Source of the DNA: Dhillonvirus LM40P1
Length of the DNA: 45,013 nt
Direction: 5' to 3' (one strand)
Sequence record: OZ035811.1
Under the pieces are notes generated by a model. That model had not been told where the DNA came from. It did not search any database and was given only the letters and a program-made list of their open reading frames with translations. This document shows, one piece after another, positions 1,979 to 44,973 of the stretch (position 1 is the first letter of the stretch; every line of letters begins with the position of its first letter). The position numbers and the translations under genes were made by a program.

Positions 1979-3499
1979 ATGTCTGTAAACGTGGACAACC
2001 AACACCCACTCTACGCGCGCATTGCGCCTGAGTGGAAGATGATCCGTGACTGCGTTGCAGGTGAAAGGGCCGTTAAAGCGTGCGGCCCGCTTTACTTGCC
2101 GTTTCCGTCCAGTGGCGACAACACCGACCCAAAAGCGAAGGCCCGCTACAATGCATACAAGCAACGTGCGGTCTTCCTGAACGCCACCGCTCGCACGCTT
2201 AACGCGTTGCTGGGTATCGCCTTTGCGAAGCCAGTCACCATGAAGCTGTCCGGTAAAATCGCCGAGCTTATCGACGACGTAGACGGCAGCGGAATGCCAT
2301 TGCCGCAGTTACTGCGTGGAGCGATGTCGGAAGTGCTGCAATCCGGGCGAGCCGGTTTTATGGTGGACTATGACCGCCAGGCGCATTTTGACGAACTGGG
2401 TAACGTCGTGCCGCAAACCGCCGCAGAGATGGCGATGCACCGTCCGCTCATTAAGCTGTACACGGCAGAGCAGATCATCAATTGGCGACAGACCCACGGG
2501 CAGGACACCTTGATCGTGCTGAAAGAGTGCGACGAAATCAGCACCGAAGATACCGACGATTTCGCAAACCACGAAGTTACGATATGGACCGAGCTACGAA
2601 TGGTCAACGGCAAAGCACACGCCCGCCGCTGGTTTTTCAACGCAGACACGTCCGAAGTGCAGATGGATTTACCGCGTGGCTTTACCAAAACCGACCTGGT
2701 GCCGCTGGTAGATTCTGCCGGTCGCGCACTGGATAGCCTGCCGTTTTGCTGGTGTGGTGCGGTTGATAACAACGCCACCCCGGACGCCGCACCGCTGGCT
2801 GATATTGCGTCCATCAACATTAAGCACTACAACGCGGAAGCGGACGTTGCTGAGATTGCGCACATCGTAGGCCAGCCGACGCTAATCACTACCGGCCTGA
2901 CCCAATCATGGGCTGATAAAAACCTGAAGGGTGGCATCGCGCTCGGTGCGACGAAGGGCGTTATCCTGGGCCAGAACATGGACGCCAAACTGCTTCAGGC
3001 CGAAGAACGCAACCTGTCCGTGGCATTGTGTGAACGCCGTGAGAAACAGATGGCTAAACTCGGTGCGGCGCTGGTGGAGAAGGGGAGCGCACCTAAAACG
3101 GCAACAGAAGCGGCCTACGACGCGCAGACTGATAACAGTATCTTGTCGCTGATTGCCGGTAACGTTGAGAAGGCATTCAACAAGGCGCTTCAGATCGTGC
3201 AGTTGTTCACTGGTGACACCGCCGAGCAGACTGTAACCCTGAACAAGTTCTACACCGAAATCACGGTGGATGCGCAGTTGATGACAGCAATGATGAGCGG
3301 TGTACAGACTGGGACGGTCCGTCTTTCTGATTTCATCAAATGGATGATGGCACAGGGTGTAATCGACGATTCGCAGACTGTAGACCAGGTGGAAGACGAC
3401 TTGCGGAATCAGAATCCGTTGCCGCAAATGTCACCGGATGCGGTAAACTTGGACGATGACGAATCGGACAAGGTAGATGACGATGCCGAGGAAAATTAA
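1979..3499 (+). CDS. portal protein
   Basis: 506 aa ORF directly after terminase with AGAGGA SD; size and gene order typical of portal; acidic C-terminus. Confidence 0.7.
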   Translation: MSVNVDNQHPLYARIAPEWKMIRDCVAGERAVKACGPLYLPFPSSGDNTDPKAKARYNAYKQRAVFLNATARTLNALLGIAFAKPVTMKLSGKIAELIDDVDGSGMPLPQLLRGAMSEVLQSGRAGFMVDYDRQAHFDELGNVVPQTAAEMAMHRPLIKLYTAEQIINWRQTHGQDTLIVLKECDEISTEDTDDFANHEVTIWTELRMVNGKAHARRWFFNADTSEVQMDLPRGFTKTDLVPLVDSAGRALDSLPFCWCGAVDNNATPDAAPLADIASINIKHYNAEADVAEIAHIVGQPTLITTGLTQSWADKNLKGGIALGATKGVILGQNMDAKLLQAEERNLSVALCERREKQMAKLGAALVEKGSAPKTATEAAYDAQTDNSILSLIAGNVEKAFNKALQIVQLFTGDTAEQTVTLNKFYTEITVDAQLMTAMMSGVQTGTVRLSDFIKWMMAQGVIDDSQTVDQVEDDLRNQNPLPQMSPDAVNLDDDESDKVDDDAEEN

Positions 3500-5795: not shown

Positions 5796-5825
5796 TGTTG
5801 TTTCCTCGTTTGTTGGTGTGCAACC

Positions 5826-5854
5826 AATATATTGCAACCAATTAGCCAATGCAA
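5826..5854 (-). promoter_or_regulatory. sigma70-like promoter (TTGCAT-17-TATATT) with ATTGGTTGCA repeats
   Basis: -35/-10 hexamers at 17 bp spacing on minus strand, about 30 bp upstream of the 5795 start; same architecture as four other leftward promoters. Confidence 0.5.
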
Positions 5855-6654: not shown

Positions 6655-6678
6655 TTGCCCGCGAAAGCGGGCAATTTT
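6655..6678 (+). terminator. rho-independent terminator / attenuator
   Basis: TTGCCCGC gaaa GCGGGCAA hairpin followed by TTTT. Confidence 0.5.
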
Positions 6679-6746
6679 GCGAGCGTGAAAAATTAGGGTA
6701 ACATTAAAAGCACTGGGCGATTGCTCTCTACTCAAAGGATAAACTT

Positions 6747-11435: not shown

Positions 11436-11448
11436 TTCCGGCCTTTTT
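11426..11448 (+). terminator. rho-independent terminator
   Basis: GGCCGG...CCGGCC hairpin followed by TTTTT. Confidence 0.55.
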
Positions 11449-11452
11449 CATA

Positions 11453-11576
11453 GCGGGACGTCCTGCTTGTCCCGTTTTTGTCCCGCTGTCCCGCCCCGCC
11501 AAAAACTGCATACCTATTCAGAAATACTGCATAAAACCAAAACGGGACAAAAACGGGACAAGCAGGACGTCCCGCC
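11453..11576. repeat. inverted repeat pair (about 32 bp arms) built from TTGTCCCG/CGGGACAA iterons and GGGACGTCC
   Basis: 11453-11484 is the reverse complement of 11543-11576. Confidence 0.7.
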
Positions 11577-11599
11577 TCAAAAGTGCATATCTATGCAGT

Positions 11600-11772
11600 T
11601 TTCATGCATAAAACGAACGGGACAAAAACGGGACAAACTGCAAGCGGGACAGAGCGGGACGTCCCGCCGTCCCTGCCAGAGCTGCCGCGGGTTTCAGCCG
11701 ATCGGGACAGGCGGGACAAAGCCCAGTCTTTCAGACTAGACGGGGGTCAATGGCCCCCTCCGTCTGAGACTG
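11600..11772 (+). repeat. non-coding module copy 1: TGCATAAAAC, CGGGACAA iterons, GGGACGTCCCGCC palindrome, GCGGGTTT box, conserved hairpin
   Basis: About 170 bp with roughly 80 percent identity by eye to 39959-40131; iterons at 11 bp spacing. Confidence 0.7.
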
Positions 11773-11839
11773 AATAAGGTTGGTTGCAAAATGACTGATA
11801 CAATACAAACGGCAACTTGCATAAAAAGGGGACTGCATA

Positions 11840-21692: not shown

Positions 21693-21917
21693 TTACCACT
21701 CCCGTGATTTAACTGATACCGTACCAGAGAAGTTACCGTCTGAATCTGCCGCCAAACCGGTGAATCGCATGTCAATGTCTCCGGCAGCGACCTTTTGCCC
21801 GTCAACATAACGCAACATGCAGCTTCCCGCAACGTAGGTAACGCAATCGCCATTATGACGCTCAACAGCACAACCAGACAGCATAGCAACGACTAAAATA
21901 CTTAATAAAGTTTTCAT
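21693..21917 (-). CDS. small lipoprotein (superinfection-exclusion candidate)
   Basis: ATG at 21917 with GGAGAT SD; signal peptide MKTLLSILVVAMLSGC with lipobox; 74 aa. Confidence 0.55.
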   Translation of the reverse strand: MKTLLSILVVAMLSGCAVERHNGDCVTYVAGSCMLRYVDGQKVAAGDIDMRFTGLAADSDGNFSGTVSVKSREW

Positions 21918-21946: not shown

Positions 21947-21975
21947 AATATAGTGCAACCAATACGTGATTGCAA
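21947..21975 (-). promoter_or_regulatory. sigma70-like promoter (TTGCAA-17-TATATT) with ATTGGTTGCA repeats
   Basis: Minus strand reads ATTGGTTGCAATCACGTATTGGTTGCACTATATT, about 30 bp upstream of the lipoprotein start. Confidence 0.55.
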
Positions 21976-21998
21976 CCAATTTATGAGGAGTTTTCGCT

Positions 21999-26330: not shown

Positions 26331-26359
26331 AATATAGTGCAACCAAATACGGATTGCAA
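26331..26359 (-). promoter_or_regulatory. sigma70-like promoter (TTGCAA-17-TATATT) with ATTGGTTGCA repeats
   Basis: Minus strand ATTGGTTGCAATCCGTATTTGGTTGCACTATATT. Confidence 0.55.
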
Positions 26360-26363
26360 CCAA

Positions 26364-26585
26364 TTATTTTAATTCCTCAATCAAATTGGCACGGACAATA
26401 CGGGCCGAGAAGGCATCGCACACAAGATGGCAACGCGCCGTCATGACAAGCCAGCCGGTTAGGTCACGGCCTAGCAATTGCTCCGGGCGGCTTACCCGCA
26501 ATACTTTATTTCCAGGGAAAACCTGGTAACGTTTAATGATCTCATCCACGACGCGCGGACTGCGATCGACGACTAAGATATTCAT
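26364..26585 (-). CDS. hypothetical protein
   Basis: ATG at 26585 with AAGGAG SD; 73 aa. Confidence 0.45.
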   Translation of the reverse strand: MNILVVDRSPRVVDEIIKRYQVFPGNKVLRVSRPEQLLGRDLTGWLVMTARCHLVCDAFSARIVRANLIEELK

Positions 26586-27791: not shown

Positions 27792-27820
27792 AATATAATG
27801 CAACCAATCTCGCAATGCAA
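27792..27820 (-). promoter_or_regulatory. sigma70-like promoter (TTGCAT-17-TATATT) with ATTGGTTGCA repeats
   Basis: Minus strand ATTGGTTGCATTGCGAGATTGGTTGCATTATATT. Confidence 0.55.
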
Positions 27821-27825
27821 CCAAT

Positions 27826-30752: not shown

Positions 30753-30781
30753 ACTATAACTTTATGCGACCAATTCCGCAA
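30753..30781 (-). promoter_or_regulatory. sigma70-like promoter variant (TTGCGG-17-TATAGT) with ATTGGTTGC/ATTGGTCGC repeats
   Basis: Minus strand ATTGGTTGCGGAATTGGTCGCATAAAGTTATAGT. Confidence 0.4.
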
Positions 30782-31040
30782 CCAATAAATCAGCGTCGTG
30801 AATGTTGTCGATTACGCGAACGTCGGCCCCGCGCTTCGCCATGCGCTCATGTTCACGTACCTGGTGCGGCTTCGGCTTACCACCGGGGCGCTTCACTTCA
30901 ACGAATACGACTCTGCCGTTGATGATGATAATCAGGTCGGGCGCGCCGGTACGCCCTTCCCATGCCATTTTACGGCAGAATCCACCTGCCTCTTTTACCT
31001 CTTTCATCAGGTGACTTTGCACCTTGCCTTCAGGAGTCAT
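30762..31040 (-). CDS. VRR-NUC domain nuclease
   Basis: Segment VFVEVKRPGGKPKPHQVREHERMAKRGADV matches the VRR-NUC E.K...Q pattern; TAATG coupling to polymerase gene. Confidence 0.65.
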   Translation of the reverse strand: MTPEGKVQSHLMKEVKEAGGFCRKMAWEGRTGAPDLIIIINGRVVFVEVKRPGGKPKPHQVREHERMAKRGADVRVIDNIHDADLLVAELVA

Positions 31041-34601: not shown

Positions 34602-36024
34602 CGCCCAAATCCTCGTCGCTTGCTTCTTGCCATTCCGGGCGCGGGTCGTCAACTGGTGCCAGGACCGGTTTCGCCGGCGCACGCGTGATTTTATCTTGCA
34701 GTTTCGCCCACACTTTCGGTTTCTCATCCTTCAGCACCTTCTCGGCATCAGTAGGGCTGATTAATGATTCCTTGTACATCAGGTCGCGCTTGATCCGGGC
34801 CGTTGTGAATACAGCGATAACTTCGCTTTCATCCTTCCACTTACGCGCACCTTCACGACCAGCTACCAGCTTCAGGCCCAGCGCTTCGCCGTCACCGGCT
34901 AACACTGCTTTGAATACGGCAGCCTCGATCGCTTTGATGTGCTGGCGCATGGTTTCCAGGCCGTCGTAAGCCTTCTTCAGTTCTTCCGTGGTCATAGCAC
35001 CGGCTGGCGCTTCTTTCTTTCCACGCTTCGCACGTCGGGCAGCTTTCCGGGCTTCGAGGTCCATGTTCTGGTCGTGGTTTTTGCATTCTTCCTCGGCGGC
35101 AATGCTTACATCGTCGCCCAGGTCTTCGTCGGTTGCCGTTGGTGGCGTCATTGTGTCGATGGCGGCTTTAGCGCGGGCACTACATTGGTCCGCAAATCGA
35201 CACCACTGACACGCATCGGCGCTCGGACGGAAGTCTGCACGGGTGAGATTCTTCTTACCCTTAGCGAGGGCATCCAGGGCGGCTACTGCGCGTTTTGCCG
35301 CGTACTTGGCGAAGATTTCCAGTGCTTCCACTGAAATATCCCACTCCGATGCACCGCCGCAATACGGCTGGAAGATGACCAGGCGAACGGTGGTAATGTC
35401 GTACATCTTTTGCAGCTTGCGCAGCAGGCCGAGCGCATACAGCATAAGCTGTTTGTTCTCTTTCGCCTCGACCTTATGGCGTCCGGTCTTCAGGTCGCCC
35501 ACAATGAGCATGTACGTGCCGTCGGTCTTCTTCATGACCATAACCATATCGGCAGTACCGAAGGTCTTGATCGCTTCGCCGTCAATCTCGTAGCCTTTGT
35601 GCAGGACGCGAGTCAGATCCGCGCGCATCTCAAGCTGCACAAACTCGGCAACTTCAAGCAGCGGTCGCCAGTGGTCGATGTACGCGTCGCACTGTTTCAC
35701 CATGTCGTCAGTTACCAGGATGGCGTCCTTAGGTGCTTTCGCTGCTGCTTTAACTGGTCCTTTACCCTGATTTTCGACGTAGCACCCTTTATATGTCTTC
35801 GCCGTGATGTGGTCTTCGCCTGCAATGATGCGGTTTAGTACCACTTCAGATACGGTGTGCATACTCGTACCGTTGATCGCGGCTTGCCCGGATTCGTTCG
35901 GAATACCTTTCTCCACCACCAGGGCGGCGGGACACCCCATCCATTTTTTAGCGCCGGATGGGCCGAGTAATGAGTGTTCTGTGTTACTGCCGGATTGCGT
36001 CTTGCGCTTCGCTTTGATAGCCAT
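34594..36024 (-). CDS. PD-(D/E)XK exonuclease (RecB/Cas4-like) with C-terminal Cys cluster
   Basis: GTADMVMV...IVGDLKTG...EAKENKQLMLYALG nuclease core and CQWCRFADQC cluster. Confidence 0.6.
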   Translation of the reverse strand: MAIKAKRKTQSGSNTEHSLLGPSGAKKWMGCPAALVVEKGIPNESGQAAINGTSMHTVSEVVLNRIIAGEDHITAKTYKGCYVENQGKGPVKAAAKAPKDAILVTDDMVKQCDAYIDHWRPLLEVAEFVQLEMRADLTRVLHKGYEIDGEAIKTFGTADMVMVMKKTDGTYMLIVGDLKTGRHKVEAKENKQLMLYALGLLRKLQKMYDITTVRLVIFQPYCGGASEWDISVEALEIFAKYAAKRAVAALDALAKGKKNLTRADFRPSADACQWCRFADQCSARAKAAIDTMTPPTATDEDLGDDVSIAAEEECKNHDQNMDLEARKAARRAKRGKKEAPAGAMTTEELKKAYDGLETMRQHIKAIEAAVFKAVLAGDGEALGLKLVAGREGARKWKDESEVIAVFTTARIKRDLMYKESLISPTDAEKVLKDEKPKVWAKLQDKITRAPAKPVLAPVDDPRPEWQEASDEDLGDE

Positions 36025-36505: not shown

Positions 36506-37009
36506 TTAGTCTTCCAGTTCGAAATAGGTTTCGACAATTTCTTTCAGTTCGGTGTGGAAGTCTTCAACGTCGTCATCTTCCAGCTTAGCCACAGTCTTGA
36601 TTTCGAACGATTCCAGCAGGTCGTCAAATTCGTCGTTCGCGTCGTCATCGTCGCCGCCTGCAATGATTGCCGCGTATTGTGCAATTTCATCGCGCATTTC
36701 TTTCAGCGGATCGGCGTCTTTCTTAGCCTTCACTTTGCCCTTGCCTTTGGCTGGCTTTTCTTCCGGTTCGTCTTCGTCGTCGTCATCTTCTACGACTTCT
36801 TTTTTCGCCTTGCCCTTAGCCGTGGACTTCTTAGCAGGTTTCTTATCTTCCTGCTCGTCATCTTCGTCTTTGGCTTCTTCTTTCTTAGCCTTAGACGGTT
36901 TCTTATCTTCCTGCTTACCAACGGCAGCGCCCTGGGTTTCGTAATGTTTAGCGATGGTTTCCAGTGCTACTACGCCGCGAGTAATCAGATTCAGGATTTG
37001 CTCAAACAT
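36506..37009 (-). CDS. highly charged low-complexity early protein
   Basis: ATG at 37009 with GGAGAC SD; first gene of leftward early operon; K/E/D-rich with acidic C-terminal half. Confidence 0.5.
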   Translation of the reverse strand: MFEQILNLITRGVVALETIAKHYETQGAAVGKQEDKKPSKAKKEEAKDEDDEQEDKKPAKKSTAKGKAKKEVVEDDDDEDEPEEKPAKGKGKVKAKKDADPLKEMRDEIAQYAAIIAGGDDDDANDEFDDLLESFEIKTVAKLEDDDVEDFHTELKEIVETYFELED

Positions 37010-37056: not shown

Positions 37057-37086
37057 ATAATAGATTGGTTGCAGGATGGGTGTCAA
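37057..37086 (-). promoter_or_regulatory. strong sigma70-like early promoter (TTGACA, 17-18 bp spacer, TATTAT)
   Basis: Perfect -35 on minus strand; spacer contains TGCAACCAAT; A11 tract immediately upstream. Confidence 0.55.
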
Positions 37087-37096
37087 CAACTAATTT

Positions 37097-37107
37097 AAAA
37101 AAAAAAA
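37097..37107. repeat. A11 homopolymer in divergent promoter region
   Basis: Eleven consecutive A on plus strand. Confidence 0.9.
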
Positions 37108-37202
37108 TCCCCGAAGCAAAACGCAACGGGGATAACCATAAGAGACAATGAGACTGGTTTTATTATTACACGCGCGCGCACCCGTTTCAATATACAAAAC
37201 AG

Positions 37203-37231
37203 TTGACACCGGTTTAATTTGGGTGTAGTTT
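37203..37231 (+). promoter_or_regulatory. sigma70-like promoter (TTGACA-17-TAGTTT)
   Basis: Perfect -35 and 17 bp spacer, about 30 bp upstream of the 37263 gene. Confidence 0.5.
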
Positions 37232-37262
37232 CTTTGGTCATTAACCAACAGGAGACTGAATT

Positions 37263-37556
37263 GTGAATACGACTAAATTGAATGCTTTGTTAGATATGGT
37301 TGAGAATGGTGTTGATGTTGGTGCGGCCCGCGACGCTATTAACGTTGCGTTCAAAGACCTGGCCTACAAACTGGAATTACTGAACGGTACGGCAGCGAGC
37401 AAGCTGCAAAAGCATAACGAAGAAATGGAAGAATACAAAAAGCAGGTTATCAGACTGCGCGAAGAGGGTAAGTCCTGGGCAATGATTGCCGAGTTAACGG
37501 GTATTAATCAGAGCACCGTTCGTTCTTGGGTACGCAATACTAAAACTGCTAAGTAA
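37263..37556 (+). CDS. HTH DNA-binding protein (candidate transcription regulator)
   Basis: GTG start with GGAGAC SD; C-terminal helix-turn-helix-like segment SWAMIAELTGINQSTVRSW. Confidence 0.5.
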   Translation: MNTTKLNALLDMVENGVDVGAARDAINVAFKDLAYKLELLNGTAASKLQKHNEEMEEYKKQVIRLREEGKSWAMIAELTGINQSTVRSWVRNTKTAK

Positions 37557-37568
37557 GGAATTGAGACA

Positions 37569-39833
37569 ATGAGAAATATAGAATTTGCGATCACACCCCC
37601 CGCTAAGAAAGGCGAATCTGCGGTAGCTCATAACCAGTCCATGACTACCGCCGAGTTTTTCGAATTTATCCAGGATGCACCGGTAGTGTCGTCAGTTTGC
37701 ATTAACGGTACTGAAGATAAAAAAGAATATGCGCGACGTAAGCGTAAAGGCGACGGCATTGTGGCTACAACCGCCGATGGCACGCGTAAAAAGACTGGCG
37801 TGGTTAGCCGCTCGATCCTGTTCTTCGACCTGGACCGTGCTGACAACCGCACACTTACCCGCTGCCGCAGGGCTTTCCGCAAGTCCGGCCTGGAATATGT
37901 CTACCACACCACCACCGGCGACCGCCACCCGTTGAAAGACGGCAAGCGCTGTGTGCGTTTCCTGGTGCTGACAAACAAGCCAGTTCCGGCGGAAGACCTG
38001 GGCCGCGCGCAGGCTGCACTGCTTGAGCAACTGGGTCTTACCGACGCGGGCTTTGATGACTGCTCGAAAGACACAAACCGCCTTATGTACCTGCCCCACC
38101 AGCAGGCTAAGGTCGAGTGCCATGAAGGTAAACGCGCTAACGTGCGTCGTCTGCTTCGCCTGGCTGACAAGATGGGTATTGAGCAGGAAACGTTTCGCCG
38201 TGAACTGGTGCAGGGCGACGACGAGCAGATGAACGGCATCCTCGACTGGTGTTTCCAGGCTGGTTTTGAGCCGTTACCATCCGGGCGCGGTTATGAAGTA
38301 CCGTGCCCAAACGAACATCTGCACTCTGGTGAAGGGTCTACCGCTATCATGCTTAAGGATGGCGAGATTCGTTTCAAATGTATGCACACCGGCAACGGAT
38401 GCTGTTCTGAACTGAACAAACACCAACACCTGGCGCTGCGAATGATTGGTATCCCGGATATTTATAACGTGGAGCCACACAACATGTCACGCAAACAGAT
38501 CTCGGCAATCCTGCCGGGTCTGGACGACGAAGAAGTGGACGCGCAGTACGAGCACATGGTTGACCTGGTGGGTGAAGGTGAGGATTATGCGTCCTGTACT
38601 GACGCAGACCTGGAAGACGAACCGACGGCGTTGTTCTCGAAGCACGACCCGATCATCGAAGGTCTGATTAACTTCAAATCGACCTGGTACGCAGCGGGTG
38701 AGTCGAACATTGGTAAGTCCTTCTTTGTCATGGGTCAGATGGCTGCCGTTGCCGCTGGCATCCCGTTCGGCGGCGCGAAGGTCGTCCAGTCCCATTGCTT
38801 CTACTTCGATGCGGAAGGTGGCGAGGCGTCACTGCAACGTAAAGAAGCGTTGCAGATTAAATATGAGCACGACCTGGACAAGCTGCACATTATCGACCTT
38901 CAGGCACGCGGCTGGGATATTACGAGCAAGTCCGGCCTGCGTGAAGTCATCAGCTTTATCAACCGCACCGCGGATGGTGAGCCGGTCGGCCTGGTGGCGT
39001 TCGACTCCCTTAACCAGACCGTAGCGCTGCGTTCGGCTGACGCCAAACCGTTCGATGAGAACAACGCCAGCGATATGGGTGAGATTGTCAAGGCGCTGAA
39101 AGCCATTGCGGAAAACACAGGCGGCAGTGCGGGCGTCATCCACCACCCGGCGAAGGGTGCAAACGGCAGCAGATCCCCGCGTGGGTCCGGTGCGCTACAT
39201 GGCGCGGTGGATTCTGCATTCTTCCTGGAACAGCCAGACGAGAATCAGCCAGGCCAGCTTAACCTCTATCATGAGAAAGCCCGTAACGGCGTGAAACAGG
39301 GTCCGCGCGGCTTCGTGCTACTGAAGTGCAAAGTGTCCATTAACGAGCGCAAGTCCGACACGTTCGAAGCGCACCAGTCCACTAACCCTGGTCCAGACTT
39401 CGGCGATGTAGTTGCCGGTTGGGACGTCAAGCCAATCCAGGCCACCCCGCGTGATGAGACTCTGTACCTTGTACCGGTAGCTCTGGCCCCGTTCGCTATC
39501 GAACAGGCGAAGGCCGCGGGCAAGCAGGCTGTTAAGGAAGAAAACCCCGCCGGTCCGCGCAATGAAAAAGAGAAAGTGCTTTACGCAGCGCTCGAAGCGT
39601 TGATGGAAGAGAATCCGGGACACCATGGCTTCAGCAAATCGGCAATCGTCCGCAAAGCCGGACTGGCGAAAGGTGGCACATCGACGAAGCCAATAGACGA
39701 TATGCGTGAGCGCGGAATCATCGGCTTTTACAAAGACCCGGACACCGGGGCCATTTACGGGTCGTCGAATCTGGTTATCAATTCACAAATACCTATGCAA
39801 TTGACGGCGACGGATGATGATTTGAAAGATTAA
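37569..39833 (+). CDS. primase-helicase (N-terminal primase-like domain, zinc motif, RecA-type ATPase)
   Basis: Walker A GESNIGKS, Walker B-like VGLVAFDSL, Cys/His cluster CPNEHLH...CMHTGNGC. Confidence 0.65.
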   Translation: MRNIEFAITPPAKKGESAVAHNQSMTTAEFFEFIQDAPVVSSVCINGTEDKKEYARRKRKGDGIVATTADGTRKKTGVVSRSILFFDLDRADNRTLTRCRRAFRKSGLEYVYHTTTGDRHPLKDGKRCVRFLVLTNKPVPAEDLGRAQAALLEQLGLTDAGFDDCSKDTNRLMYLPHQQAKVECHEGKRANVRRLLRLADKMGIEQETFRRELVQGDDEQMNGILDWCFQAGFEPLPSGRGYEVPCPNEHLHSGEGSTAIMLKDGEIRFKCMHTGNGCCSELNKHQHLALRMIGIPDIYNVEPHNMSRKQISAILPGLDDEEVDAQYEHMVDLVGEGEDYASCTDADLEDEPTALFSKHDPIIEGLINFKSTWYAAGESNIGKSFFVMGQMAAVAAGIPFGGAKVVQSHCFYFDAEGGEASLQRKEALQIKYEHDLDKLHIIDLQARGWDITSKSGLREVISFINRTADGEPVGLVAFDSLNQTVALRSADAKPFDENNASDMGEIVKALKAIAENTGGSAGVIHHPAKGANGSRSPRGSGALHGAVDSAFFLEQPDENQPGQLNLYHEKARNGVKQGPRGFVLLKCKVSINERKSDTFEAHQSTNPGPDFGDVVAGWDVKPIQATPRDETLYLVPVALAPFAIEQAKAAGKQAVKEENPAGPRNEKEKVLYAALEALMEENPGHHGFSKSAIVRKAGLAKGGTSTKPIDDMRERGIIGFYKDPDTGAIYGSSNLVINSQIPMQLTATDDDLKD

Positions 39834-39842
39834 ATTTTGCGC

Positions 39843-39921
39843 GCATTGGTTGCCAATATGGTTAATTTGTGCGCGCATTGGTTGCCAGATTGGGTATTAA
39901 ATCTATATCGCATTGGTTGCC
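39843..39921 (+). repeat. three direct repeats of GCATTGGTTGCC at 32-35 bp spacing
   Basis: Copies at 39843-39854, 39875-39886, 39910-39921, each followed by an A/T-rich hexamer. Confidence 0.75.
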
Positions 39922-39958
39922 GTGTAGTGCTAAATAAGTGAATAGTTATGCAAAATAA

Positions 39959-40131
39959 GTGCATAAAACAAACGGGACAAAAACGGGACAAACGACAAAC
40001 GGGACAAAACGGGACGTCCCGCCGTCCCCCTCAGGAGTGGCGCGGGTTTGAGGCAAACGGGACAAGCGGGACAGACCACAGTCTTTCAGACTAGACGGGG
40101 GGTATTGTCCCCCCTCCGTCTGAGACTGCAT
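39959..40131 (+). repeat. non-coding module copy 2: TGCATAAAAC, CGGGACAA iterons, GGGACGTCCCGCC palindrome, GCGGGTTT box, conserved hairpin
   Basis: Matches 11600-11772 in element order; hairpin stem conserved while loop differs (tattgt versus tcaatgg). Confidence 0.7.
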
Positions 40132-40288
40132 AAAATCTCTGGTTGCATAATCAACGGCAGCATAGTGAAAAATGCGGCGGGGGTAGATCTCGGCAACCAA
40201 TGCGGGTTGAAGAGTGGAGAGTGAAAAATGCAGTTTGGTAATGACAACTGATAGCGATCAGCATTTTCATGCGCGTGATTAATATTGG

Positions 40289-40317
40289 TTGCATTCGTCC
40301 TGCCAGGGTGTTAGATT
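40289..40317 (+). promoter_or_regulatory. sigma70-like promoter (TTGCAT-17-TAGATT) flanked by ATTGGTTGCA motifs
   Basis: ATTGGTTGCATtcgtcctgccagggtgTTAGATTGGTTGCAC about 30 bp upstream of the 40346 gene. Confidence 0.5.
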
Positions 40318-40345
40318 GGTTGCACACCAACATGAGGACTGAACG

Positions 40346-40660: not shown

Positions 40661-40930
40661 ATGACACGCAGACGCGCTCAATGGCTTTCATGGCACATTC
40701 CCCTACATAGCATCCGTTTATGGGCGCAGAACGCGATTGAGGGCGATTCTGTGTTCTGGAGCTATCGGGATGACGTCAAGCCGCTGACGCAGACCAGAAA
40801 GCTGCACCAGTTCATGAACGAACACGGACTGCCGGTGAAAACATCATTGCAACCAATCGGCATCCGTATTACATTACGCCGTAAGCCAATCGTTGAGCAG
40901 GTTGGCAAACACAGGAGACTGACAAAATGA
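40661..40930 (+). CDS. hypothetical protein
   Basis: ATG with AAGGGG SD; 89 aa. Confidence 0.45.
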   Translation: MTRRRAQWLSWHIPLHSIRLWAQNAIEGDSVFWSYRDDVKPLTQTRKLHQFMNEHGLPVKTSLQPIGIRITLRRKPIVEQVGKHRRLTK

Positions 40931-41523
40931 AATTGATCTTCCGCCATAAACATAATGGGCGATTCCTTACCCCAATCCAGGTGCTGCCGAACTATGTGCG
41001 CCTGCACCACGAAGCCAGCGACCGCGTATTCTGGTTTAAGAAAGCCACTCTGCCGAAATATTTGCAGGTTGTGCATCATGACGTCCGCGTCGGCGATGTG
41101 CTGCGGGATATTCGGGACGGTGCGCTGTTCGTAGTACAGCGTGTGACTACCTTCGGCGTTGTACTGCAATGCGGAGCGATCCGACGCCGTCTATTTTCTG
41201 TCGGCCTGGTGAACTACACTCGCGTGGGCCGGAACTATGTGCCTAAGCTGTTCAAGCGCTACGACGCCAACCAGGTGCAAGCGAAGATGGGTCGCGCCGT
41301 ACACAAAATCGTCAATCGCTTTGATGCCGTGACGAACGCACAGCGCCATGCGCAGGAATACGGTGTGGGATTCATCCGGGTAGAACGAGACGGCAGTATG
41401 ACGTCCATCGACCCGCGCTCGACCCAACTGAAGATAGTCGAAGTGAGCAAATGTTGCCGGGCAGAAGTTGTGCGCGACCCCGGCGGGCAAGCCTTCTGTC
41501 GCGAGTGTGCGGGTGTGATATGA
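40927..41523 (+). CDS. hypothetical protein with C-terminal Cys pairs
   Basis: ATGA overlap with upstream gene; C-terminus CCRAEV...CRECAG. Confidence 0.45.
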   Translation: MKLIFRHKHNGRFLTPIQVLPNYVRLHHEASDRVFWFKKATLPKYLQVVHHDVRVGDVLRDIRDGALFVVQRVTTFGVVLQCGAIRRRLFSVGLVNYTRVGRNYVPKLFKRYDANQVQAKMGRAVHKIVNRFDAVTNAQRHAQEYGVGFIRVERDGSMTSIDPRSTQLKIVEVSKCCRAEVVRDPGGQAFCRECAGVI

Positions 41524-43476: not shown

Positions 43477-43562
43477 TTGCTTGACTTGCAACCAATTAAT
43501 AGCTCATACTTCTGTCGCCGTGGTATATTGATCGCGGTCAAACTGAATCAGGAAAATATACG

Positions 43563-44705
43563 ATGCACCCTCAAACCAAAATTACAGACGAGCAGTTGAT
43601 CGCCGAAATCCAGGCGGGAACGACCGCGAAAGATATTGCTAAGAAATACGGGATTGCACTGCGCAATGTTTATATGCGCAAAGCACGCTTATCTAAAAAG
43701 GGGATTGGGCACGGTAACGATGCCGTAATTCGTAAGCGGGTTGCCGATGGCTTCGGCGTGAAACGTGTATCCGCCCTGGTGCGTGGCAATGGCGAAGAGG
43801 TCATGTCGTGGGTTATCACCGAGCAGGACAAAGAGCGCCAGCTTGAGGCGATGCGTGCAGTGCTGGACGGCATGAACAGCGAAATCACACCGGCAGCACC
43901 CGTAAGCGCGCCACCAGTTCCGATCCAGGCGCTGGACCTGCTAAACCTGTACACCGTGTCCGACTTCCACCTGGGGATGCTGGCATGGGGAGAAGAGACT
44001 GGCGAGGATTGGGATATGGCTATTGCCGAAGACCTGTTCTACCGCTGGTTTGTCGAAGCCTTTGCCCGCGCCCCGGATGCCGGAACAGGCGTGATTAACA
44101 TCCTCGGTGATATGGCCCACTTTGACAGCCTGGATGCCGTTACCCCCGCAAGTGGTCACGTCCTGGATGCTGATACCCGCTATCAGAAGCTGGTGCGCTA
44201 CATGATTCGCATGGTCCGCCACGTTGTCGAACTGGCATTGCAGAAACACCACAAGGTTAAACTGCTAATCGTGCAGGGCAACCATGACGAAAGCGGTATG
44301 ATCTGGCTGGCTGAGATGTTCGCTACGCTGTACGAGAACGAGCCGCGCGTTGAGGTGGATACGTCGCCGGATGTCTATAAGATGGTCCAGCACGGTAAGA
44401 CTACGCTGTTCTTCCATCACGGGCACAAGGCTAAATTCGACGCTATCGAGCCGGTCATGATTTCGAAATTTCGTGAGGCGTTCGGATCCAGCCAGTACAG
44501 CTATGCTCACGTAGGCCACCTGCACCACCAGAAGATTATCGAATCGCGCAACATGATTGTTGAACAGCACCGCACGCTTGCCGCGAAGGATGCCTACGCC
44601 AGCCGAGGCGGTTGGATGAGCGGACGCAGTGCAAACGTGATAACCTATAGCGCGAACTACGGTGAAGTAGCACGCTTAACCATTAGCCCGGAGATGTTGA
44701 AATGA
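43563..44705 (+). CDS. HTH-containing metallophosphoesterase (calcineurin-like)
   Basis: Phosphoesterase motifs in order DFH, GDMAHFD, GNHDE, HHGH, GHLHH; N-terminal HTH-like segment. Confidence 0.6.
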   Translation: MHPQTKITDEQLIAEIQAGTTAKDIAKKYGIALRNVYMRKARLSKKGIGHGNDAVIRKRVADGFGVKRVSALVRGNGEEVMSWVITEQDKERQLEAMRAVLDGMNSEITPAAPVSAPPVPIQALDLLNLYTVSDFHLGMLAWGEETGEDWDMAIAEDLFYRWFVEAFARAPDAGTGVINILGDMAHFDSLDAVTPASGHVLDADTRYQKLVRYMIRMVRHVVELALQKHHKVKLLIVQGNHDESGMIWLAEMFATLYENEPRVEVDTSPDVYKMVQHGKTTLFFHHGHKAKFDAIEPVMISKFREAFGSSQYSYAHVGHLHHQKIIESRNMIVEQHRTLAAKDAYASRGGWMSGRSANVITYSANYGEVARLTISPEMLK

Positions 44706-44914
44706 TCAGACAAGTATTCATGAGCACGCAGGCCGCACGCCTGGCTGAATTACGCAAACAACTGGAAGGACTGCGCCGATTCGAGCGCACAGCGGCAGCG
44801 GTAGGCATGAGTATGTCGGAACGGATCGAGATACTCACTCAAATTCGCCACACAGAGGGCGCAATCGAGGCAGTTAAGGCTATGCTAACCCGATACTACG
44901 GTCGACCCGTTTAA
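44702..44914 (+). CDS. hypothetical protein
   Basis: ATGA overlap with upstream gene, GGAGATG SD; 70 aa. Confidence 0.4.
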   Translation: MIRQVFMSTQAARLAELRKQLEGLRRFERTAAAVGMSMSERIEILTQIRHTEGAIEAVKAMLTRYYGRPV

Positions 44915-44947: not shown

Positions 44948-44973
44948 GTGTCTGCAATTCTCCCTGATATAAT
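44946..44973 (+). promoter_or_regulatory. extended -10 promoter (TGATATAAT) reading off the window end
   Basis: TGnTATAAT at 44965-44973; would drive the terminase genes if the genome is circularly permuted. Confidence 0.4.

Follow-up and report, generated by a model that had tools for sequence, protein, structure and literature searches.

What purpose is served by a ten-base word, ATTGGTTGCA, in a promoter whose hexamers already suit sigma-70? The question is raised by a leftward promoter at positions 21947 to 21975 of the genome of Dhillonvirus LM40P1 (sequence record OZ035811.1), the whole stretch of 45,013 nucleotides being referred to here as the window. The initial annotation described this site as one of five near-identical leftward promoters built on direct repeats of the word and suggested that an operator overlaps them. 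A 6-kb probe from the window was 98% identical to Escherichia phage Ioannina and 77 to 88% identical, over parts of its length, to more than 130 other Dhillonvirus genomes, and the gene order from the small terminase gene to the last gene matches that of annotated relatives. Because both lines of evidence agree with the relatives, the window is read as one complete Dhillonvirus genome, that of an HK578-like siphophage of Escherichia coli. As set out below, the sequence comparisons make it probable that the word is an operator, that is, a predicted regulator-binding site.

An unbiased k-mer count returned ATTGGTTGCA as the most over-represented 10-mer of the genome. The window holds 12 exact copies and 9 copies with one mismatch, and these 21 compare with 3.59 ± 1.76 in 100 shuffled sequences, the shuffle maximum being 9, so that the repeated motif of the initial annotation is indeed in excess over expectation. 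Eleven of the 12 exact copies lie in non-coding DNA, which makes up 5.9% of the genome when the gene map is transferred from relatives (binomial P = 3.4e-13), as do six of the nine one-mismatch copies (P = 3e-6). The word is thus not equally frequent in coding and intergenic DNA, as a spurious motif would be. Copies with exactly two mismatches were at background, with 2 of 24 in non-coding DNA. The nominally coding exceptions are a pair at 30765 and 30777, overlapping the final codons of the gene upstream of promoter E, and single copies at 40848 and 30695. The one-mismatch matches at 11779 and 30695 are probably due to chance; that at 11779 is not kept in relatives. Among the 19 credible copies, positions 2 to 9 are invariant and position 10 is A or C, and the 8 bases on either side carry no information. 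The word is therefore a sharp block of 9 to 10 bp with the 9-bp core ATTGGTTGC, the full site being written ATTGGTTGC(A/C), and with the inner core TTGGTTGC. Its 5' half is ATTGGT and its 3' half TTGCA(A/T).

Most copies fall on promoters (Table 1). At each motif promoter there are two sigma-70-like hexamers 17 or 18 bp apart, and at least one copy lies between about -40 and +5, which places a conserved word beyond the need of polymerase within the promoter core. Direct copies were found at -40..-31, -28..-19, -23..-14 and -9..+1, and inverted copies at -34..-25, -29..-20 and -23..-14. Promoters B, C, F and K passed a sigma-70 consensus scan, which independently listed 21975-21947 and 26359-26331 as TTGCAA-17-TATATT. 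Promoters A, D, E, I and J combine TTGCA(A/T) or TTGCGG with a 17-bp spacer and TATATT, TATAGT, TAGATT or TACATT, and throughout A to E the -35-like hexamer, TTGCA(A/T) or TTGCGG, stands 17 bp from the -10. In B, C and D the second copy lies 17 bp downstream of the first and ends one base before TATATT. Promoter F is the best sigma-70 match in a 20-kb scan (11 of 12 consensus positions), and the HK578 record annotates its orthologue at 35370-35396. The block that forms candidate promoter J is conserved within otherwise variable coding sequence, and at promoter K relatives have a second copy just after the -10.

TABLE 1 Predicted promoters, copies of the word and the candidate regulator gene in the window
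Feature	Position	Strand	Sequence and elements	Context
Promoter A	5811..5854	-	TTGCATtggctaATTGGTTGCAaTATATTGGTTGCACACCAACA; -35 TTGCAT 5854-5849; spacer copy 5833-5842; -10 TATATT 5831-5826; second copy 5819-5828 across -10/+1, forming TTGGT-N5-ACCAA (TATATTGGTTGCACACCAACA)	Before leftward Nmad5-domain gene embedded in head module
Promoter B	21947..21980	-	ATTGGTTGCAatcacgtATTGGTTGCAcTATATT; copies 21971-21980 (holding -35 TTGCAA) and 21954-21963 (spacer), the latter 1 nt from -10 TATATT (21952-21947)	Before Cor-like lipoprotein gene (ATG at 21917)
Promoter C	26331..26364	-	ATTGGTTGCAatccgtaTTTGGTTGCAcTATATT; direct pair 26355-26364 and 26338-26347 (TTTGGTTGCA); -10 TATATT	Before leftward DUF6378-domain gene
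Promoter D	27792..27825	-	ATTGGTTGCAttgcgagATTGGTTGCAtTATATT; direct pair 27816-27825 and 27799-27808; -35 TTGCAT; -10 TATATT	
Promoter E	30753..30786	-	Variant ATTGGTTGCGgaATTGGTCGCAtaaagtTATAGT; copies ATTGGTTGCG 30777-30786 and ATTGGTCGCA 30765-30774, 12 bp apart; TTGCGG-17-TATAGT	Before Lar-like gene and SNF2 helicase operon; overlaps last codons of upstream endonuclease gene
Promoter F	37057..37086	-	TTGACA-18-TATTAT; inverted copy 37064-37073 (+ strand) in spacer, 1 nt from -10	Leftward early promoter of replication-gene operon
Promoter P_R	37203..37250	+	TTGACA-17-TAGTTT (37203-37231); palindrome TTGGTCATTAACCAA 37234-37248 over start region	Rightward early promoter for HTH gene and primase-helicase
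Candidate binder, 97-residue helix-turn-helix (HTH) protein	37263..37556	+		First gene of early rightward P_R operon
Subtype copies (G)CGCATTGGTTGCC	39845, 39877, 39912 (39845..39921)	+	Three direct copies	Left edge of iteron region after primase-helicase gene
Inverted CGCATTGGTTGCC copy	40192..40201	-		Right edge of iteron region after primase-helicase gene
Promoter I	40284..40332	+	-35 TTGCAT in copy 40284-40293; -10 TAGATT; second copy 40315-40324 across -10/+1, forming TTGGT-N5-ACCAA	Before gp50 and lysis genes
Candidate promoter J	40847..40875	+	TTGCAA-17-TACATT; -35 supplied by inverted copy 40848-40857	Inside 3' end of gp51
Promoter K	43481..43510	+	TTGACT-18-CATACT; inverted copy 43487-43496 abutting -35	After bidirectional terminator
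Extended -10	44965-44973	+	TGATATAAT; conserved form in relatives TGTTATAAT	Before small terminase gene
Extended -10	11796-11804	+	TGATACAAT; same form in relatives	Before tape-measure gene

Reading the sequence at each of the five leftward sites confirmed their coordinates, and the further copies mentioned with them, at 37064, 40284 and 40315, and 43487, are all present and exact. The view of a leftward family did not hold, since the rightward promoters I, J and K carry the word too and it occurs in both orientations. Nor are the further copies loose relatives; that at 37064 sits inverted in the spacer of promoter F, on the opposite strand. The list of copies was also incomplete, lacking 39845, 39877 and 39912 (+), 40192 (-), 40848 (-) and the third copy of promoter A at 5819-5828. 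At 5826-5854 the promoter and its hexamers are as described, but the -35 copy is degenerate (TTTGCTTGCA). The spacing of about 30 bp between the -10 and the gene applies to three sites (29 to 30 nt to the start codon), whereas at two it is 45 to 47 nt.

A terminator-like hairpin with a T-run (27791-27766, minus strand) begins right after the -10 of promoter D, whose start site is probably inside the 5' arm of that hairpin. Read-through transcription would therefore terminate there, whereas transcripts begun at D would be without the hairpin.

The word is conserved well beyond the window. HK578, SO-1 (a Sodalis phage), KarlBarth, WFI, rolling, Gluttony and CHD5UKE2 have 9 to 10 exact copies and 15 to 18 copies with at most one mismatch, in orthologous intergenic places, and in each relative the word is either the top 10-mer, where k-mers were counted, or present in 9 to 10 exact copies. 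Nine relatives examined over their whole length have copies at orthologous places between genes. In the more distant metagenomic contigs L129 and L131, the core ATTGGTTGC is the top 9-mer and occupies the same loci in a different arrangement; locus I of L129, for example, has a -35 copy and a spacer copy. Over seven aligned regions, 151 of 175 motif columns (86%) were invariant compared with 538 of 874 other intergenic columns (62%; Fisher P = 3e-11). The promoter hexamers, invariant in 65 of 73 columns, are on a par with the motif columns. Their sequence and spacing agree with the original proposal that they fit sigma-70. The accompanying proposal, of a word beyond the need of sigma-70 that is best read as an operator overlapping the promoters, is also upheld, as ATTGG upstream of the -35 and the copies in the spacer and at the start site are invariant. 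In the intergenic alignments the copies and the -10 hexamers are fixed while the bases between them change. At promoter A, where all 20 motif columns are invariant in six genomes, the bases that separate the motif from the -35 are TGGCTA, TCCGCGT, TCCAGGT or TACAGGT, and at promoter D the stretch between the fixed elements reads TTGCGAG or TAATTAG. The site of promoter E could be aligned in eight genomes.

Such a pattern could in principle arise without any additional factor, if the promoters had a common ancestor or if one strong sigma-70 promoter cassette had been copied along with its genes. Cassette replacement does seem to happen: promoters B and C of the window are almost identical 34-mers and are unlike the orthologous promoters of other Dhillonviruses, a likeness that suggests replacement by a promoter cassette. 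At the promoter C locus other phages have an inverted pair, TTGCAACCAATagGTTGGTTGCAcTATAGT, and an upstream gene that is missing in the window, and at the promoter B locus relatives have one intact copy only, the -35 copy. The 17-bp direct-pair architecture at B and C is therefore a feature of this lineage; the tidy pairs reported at 21947 and 26331 are present here but confined at those loci to this phage lineage. The two-copy arrangement of promoter D, by comparison, is kept in every genome that has the locus. As a general account, however, we consider copying highly unlikely. Only the 10-mer and the hexamers are held in common, the flanks and the sequences between copies being different; both orientations are found, and some copies lie outside promoter register; and the word is invariant across diverged genomes in which neighboring bases drift. 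The flanks carry no information and the sequence between paired copies varies freely, and therefore selection acts on the word and does not reflect the copying of a cassette.

The word does not mark every promoter. Two TGn-extended -10 promoters, at 44965-44973 and 11796-11804, have neither a -35 nor ATTGGTTGCA. Each stands just after a hairpin and is kept in nearly all genomes, and together they look like a separate late promoter class. The motif is also lacking from a promoter-like site upstream of the major capsid gene (6677-6705, TTGCGA-17-AACATT), and the 20-kb structural region as a whole contains no excess of sigma-70-like matches (12 versus 12.6 in shuffled sequence). The structural promoters being motif free, the word marks -35-dependent non-structural promoters and not all promoters.

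The position of the copies bears on what a bound protein might do. Promoters F, P_R and K have a near-consensus -35 of their own, and in each of them the site is found in the spacer or over the start and nowhere else. We know of no activator that acts from spacer or start-site positions, and the simplest single function for the word is that a bound protein would keep RNA polymerase off the promoter. The varied registers and orientations likewise speak for an operator from which RNA polymerase would be excluded, and against a -35 box specific to the phage. Judged from position alone, we hold repression to be the sign of regulation with about even confidence.

The candidate binder is the HTH protein encoded by the first gene downstream of P_R. 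It was the only Pfam- or NCBIfam-recognizable DNA-binding protein among 20 small proteins scanned, with a C-terminal tri-helical HTH at residues 53 to 92 (Pfam HTH_23, 7.8e-7; Sigma70_r4_2, 1.2e-6) and a match below cut-off to an NCBIfam model of extracytoplasmic function (ECF) sigma region 4. The family is small and confined to these phages. Its alignment shows that residues ~37 to 94, including the HTH, are almost invariant and that the N-terminal 35 residues are hypervariable; the HK578 protein has a different, longer N terminus (142 residues as annotated). An AlphaFold model (pLDDT 83.5) consists of a 49-residue helix running into the tri-helical HTH. A sequence search of PDB chains and a Foldseek search returned generic HTH matches (IstA, LuxR/GerE and resolvase) at E > 0.1 that indicate no function; the weak Foldseek matches (E > 0.1) include NarL, GerE, TraR and SdiA. 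That this protein binds the word is a tentative assignment, which we rate at somewhat below even.

Taken together, these observations suggest the following scheme. The HTH protein would be made from the early rightward promoter and would then act on the motif promoters, which drive non-structural genes: the two divergent early promoters and the leftward replication and DNA modification units, as well as two leftward "moron" units lying within the structural module, and the rightward unit that runs on to the lysis genes. Where a copy covers the -35, the hexamer is at the same time the 3' half of the operator, so that the regulator and sigma region 4 could not bind at once; the bound protein would be in competition with both sigma region 4 and RNA polymerase, and the promoters would be shut down. 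The outcome would be autoregulation and an early/middle shut-off, which the motif-free extended -10 promoters of the small terminase and tape-measure genes would escape. Repression of promoters A and B would fit, as both fire leftward into rightward structural transcription. The complete explanation, in which the word is the operator of a phage-encoded binder that occludes -35-dependent promoters and the HTH protein is the likeliest such binder, stands in our view at about an even chance of being right.

The same data can be read as positive control by sigma appropriation. The word at -40..-31 would be a phage-specific "-35 box" through which the HTH protein, resembling sigma region 4, directs host RNA polymerase, by recruitment or retargeting, to middle promoters with a weak -35 (TTGCAT or TTGCGG), while copies in the spacer or at +1 would repress the consensus early promoters, a dual switch with a logic like that of phi29 p4 or T4 MotA. 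One register, with the -35 inside the motif, a 17-bp spacer and a direct copy, does recur at B, C, D, E and I; these -35 hexamers match TTGACA at only 3 to 4 of 6 positions, and neither D nor I passes the consensus scan. At the two early promoters the -35 is a genuine TTGACA and the motif is confined to repressing positions, and the candidate protein matches the Sigma70_r4_2 and ECF sigma region 4 models. Those sigma region 4 matches, however, are under the NCBIfam curated cut-offs and generic for this class of HTH. Most of the promoters concerned have a second copy (-23..-14 or -9..+1) that should block polymerase, and inverted copies supply the -35 at J and, in other phages, at C, which a directional -35 reader would refuse. 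In addition, TTGCAA-17-TATATT should work with sigma-70 alone, and a MotA/AsiA homologue is neither annotated in any of eight relatives nor found among the 20 proteins scanned. We therefore regard sigma appropriation as unlikely. Its extension to a three-class program, with the HTH protein standing in for sigma region 4 to read ATTGGTTGCA as the -35 box of middle promoters and to block the two early ones, and with the extended -10 promoters serving as late promoters once -35 recognition is disabled, is improbable; if true, it would be a three-class temporal program run by a sigma appropriation device unrelated to T4 MotA/AsiA.

The proposed operator was compared with known systems. T4 MotA boxes occupy one position (~-30) in one orientation and keep a sigma-70-type -10. 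Like them, the word here is a phage-specific sequence that replaces or overlaps the -35 next to a sigma-70-type -10; unlike them, its positions and orientations vary and the -35 hexamers are still sigma-70-like. A single phage-specific -35 box of the MotA type was rejected because the copies occupy no fewer than four direct and three inverted registers. The C1 operators of phage P1, which serve lysogenic repression, are many dispersed asymmetric 17-bp sites that overlap promoter elements, some of them paired in either orientation. Dispersed asymmetric sites over promoter elements, some paired in either orientation, are likewise seen here, but the sites of P1 are longer, at 17 bp, their role is lysogenic, and no homologous protein is present. 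Regulators of the NarL/LuxR-GerE HTH type bind short asymmetric heptamer sites that may be single, direct or inverted with variable spacing. The candidate protein has the same HTH fold class, according to weak structural matches (E > 0.1); those regulators, however, are response regulators of the host that also have a receiver or ligand domain, while the phage protein is a long helix and an HTH only.

The stoperators of cluster A mycobacteriophages (L5 gp71 and the TipsytheTRex repressor) comprise more than 20 13-mer sites, lying in promoters and between genes, to which a repressor binds as a monomer (PMC9283540). As there, more than 20 copies of a short asymmetric word, here of 10 bp, are dispersed over the genome, presumably for one phage HTH protein. 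Those phages are temperate and the protein is their immunity repressor, whereas the present phage is virulent, with no integrase or immunity module annotated in its relatives; nearly all copies here are in promoter cores and not between genes; and the candidate protein shows no likeness to the two-domain L5 repressor in sequence or in domains. Orientation there strictly follows transcription, and the sites block elongation, whereas about one-third of the copies here are inverted. This rule fails at F, J, K and H and, in relatives, at site C, where copies are inverted with respect to their transcription unit.

Some of the sites are palindromic, which raises the question of a host factor. TTGGT-N5-ACCAA occurs exactly three times in 45 kb, at P_R, A and I, each time just downstream of a -10. 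The palindrome at P_R is invariant in six genomes; in L129 a single inverted copy of the motif takes its place. A host transcription factor, for instance a GntR regulator of the FadR subfamily such as PdhR, might bind such sites. The PdhR-type box is ATTGGT-N3-ACCAAT; the 5' half of the word is ATTGGT, three palindromes lie at start sites, and the motif is unchanged in the Sodalis phage SO-1, so that a factor conserved in Enterobacterales could serve. On the other side, TTGGT/ACCAA inverted repeats with spacers of 0 to 12 bp were searched for in the genome, and none besides the three with N5 was found. The N2/N3 spacing of such boxes is never seen, and a PdhR/FadR-type GntR box with its 2- to 3-bp spacer was accordingly rejected. 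Such boxes also leave unexplained positions 7 to 9 (TGC), which are as invariant as ATTGGT, and the sites are mostly single, direct or variably spaced, unlike fixed dimer operators. A host factor is thus a very remote prospect. Two further site classes were discarded: a sigma-54 promoter (TGGCAC-N5-TTGCA), as GG and GC are 4 nt apart within one copy, and a lambda CII-type site (TTGC-N6-TTGC), the sole one in the window being at 39642, inside a gene. A lone sigma-54-like match, TGGCTAATTGGTTGCA at 5833-5848 (minus strand; TGGC-N7-TTGCA), occurs in the window only and not in relatives, and is probably a coincidence.

Only the four CGCATTGGTTGCC copies (39845-40201) are without conserved promoter context. 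They form a distinct conserved subtype that brackets the CGGGACA-iteron region after the primase-helicase gene, and the HTH gene adjoins the primase-helicase gene. It is conceivable, then, that the word serves replication or genome organization, being bound by an initiator or accessory protein, and that its link to promoters is secondary. At least 14 other copies, however, are in exact -35/-10 register at ten separate promoters genome-wide, and a second iteron region (11440-11725) has no conserved copy. A primary role in replication therefore seems to us quite improbable; such a role and one at promoters are not mutually exclusive. The two iteron regions themselves, 11440-11725 and 39960-40080, contain dense (A/G)CGGGACA iterons in both orientations and end in the same long hairpin (CAGTCTTTCAGACTAGACGGGGG...CCCCCTCCGTCTGAGACTG); they correspond to repeat regions A and B of the SO-1 record and may be replication origins. 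The iteron word differs among phages, being AAACGGGACAA here and AAGCGGGACA in most others.

Several points weigh against occlusion by the HTH protein, which nonetheless is the reading we prefer. Many copies lie exactly at -40..-31, which would also suit an activator of the class II type, and, with a repressor also covering promoters that lead to the lysis genes, the timing would have to be explained further. Other points concern the link between protein and word. Covariation was examined in CHD5UKE2, whose protein is 49% identical, and in L129 and L131 (62%); it cannot connect the two because the HTH and the motif core are both invariant, and CHD5UKE2 has the same motif in spite of its 49%-identical protein. 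HK578 is without the palindrome of P_R, TTGGT-N5-ACCAA being absent downstream of its rightward early promoter (HK578 [L002], 35513-35580). The protein could instead bind the CGGGACA iterons, its gene adjoining that of the primase-helicase, and gp51, gp52 or gp59 could be an unrecognized nucleic acid-binding protein. Finally, the literature searched yielded no data on binding, footprints or transcripts for any Dhillonvirus.

The small proteins just named are of some interest in themselves. gp51 (40661-40930, plus strand; isoelectric point [pI] 11.6) and gp59 (44702-44914, plus strand; pI 10.8) are small and very basic, and gp52 (40927-41523, plus strand) is basic with a C-terminal CxxC...CxxC. 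gp46 (36506-37009, minus strand) is, on the other hand, extremely acidic and K/E/D rich (pI 4.5) and may be a DNA mimic. Pfam and NCBIfam gave no match for any of the four.

Operators that are scattered over a phage genome and overlap its promoters are well known, so the present proposal overturns nothing; the motif, a familiar sort of phage regulatory element in kind, is apparently undescribed. Neither a published account of Dhillonvirus gene regulation nor any mention of ATTGGTTGCA in a phage context was found in the literature searched, genome papers included, and the only Dhillonvirus promoters found there were three consensus promoters that the HK578 record annotates. As virulent coliphages, Dhillonviruses are common, and they are used in phage defense research and therapy collections. 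They are called lytic in recent papers, and no integrase or immunity module is annotated in the eight relatives read. The regulatory map that results has about ten motif-bearing, -35-dependent non-structural promoters, at least two motif-free extended -10 structural promoters and one candidate regulator, and could be of use in engineering Dhillonviruses, for example, in choosing early or late expression for payload genes.

Between the divergent early promoters lies a small leftward unit (37097-37190, minus strand) comprising a TG-extended promoter, TTGAAA-17-AATAAT, about 60 nt of sequence and then a hairpin with a T-run. The unit is kept in six genomes with compensatory changes in the stem (TCCCCG/CGGGGA here, GCGCCG/CGGCGC elsewhere) and could be a small RNA or leader; an Rfam scan of the window, this unit included, gave no match.

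A scan of 2.9 million viral contigs in IMG/VR for two copies of the word 2 to 30 bp apart returned, outside Dhillonvirus-like contigs, uninformative coding 9-bp tandem repeats, (GCATTGGTT)n, with a single exception. This is an unrelated contig (L011; IMGVR_UViG_3300038463_000167) that carries, at 2795-3159, seven copies of ctaATTGGTTGCAtcc in about 400 bp of apparently non-coding DNA, an iteron-like array of the same 10-mer. A different word, TGCCGTTG/CAACGGCA, was present in the window in 28 copies, compared with about 1.6 expected from base composition. These are scattered in coding DNA on both strands (18 plus, 10 minus), and the word is enriched in CHD5UKE2 too.

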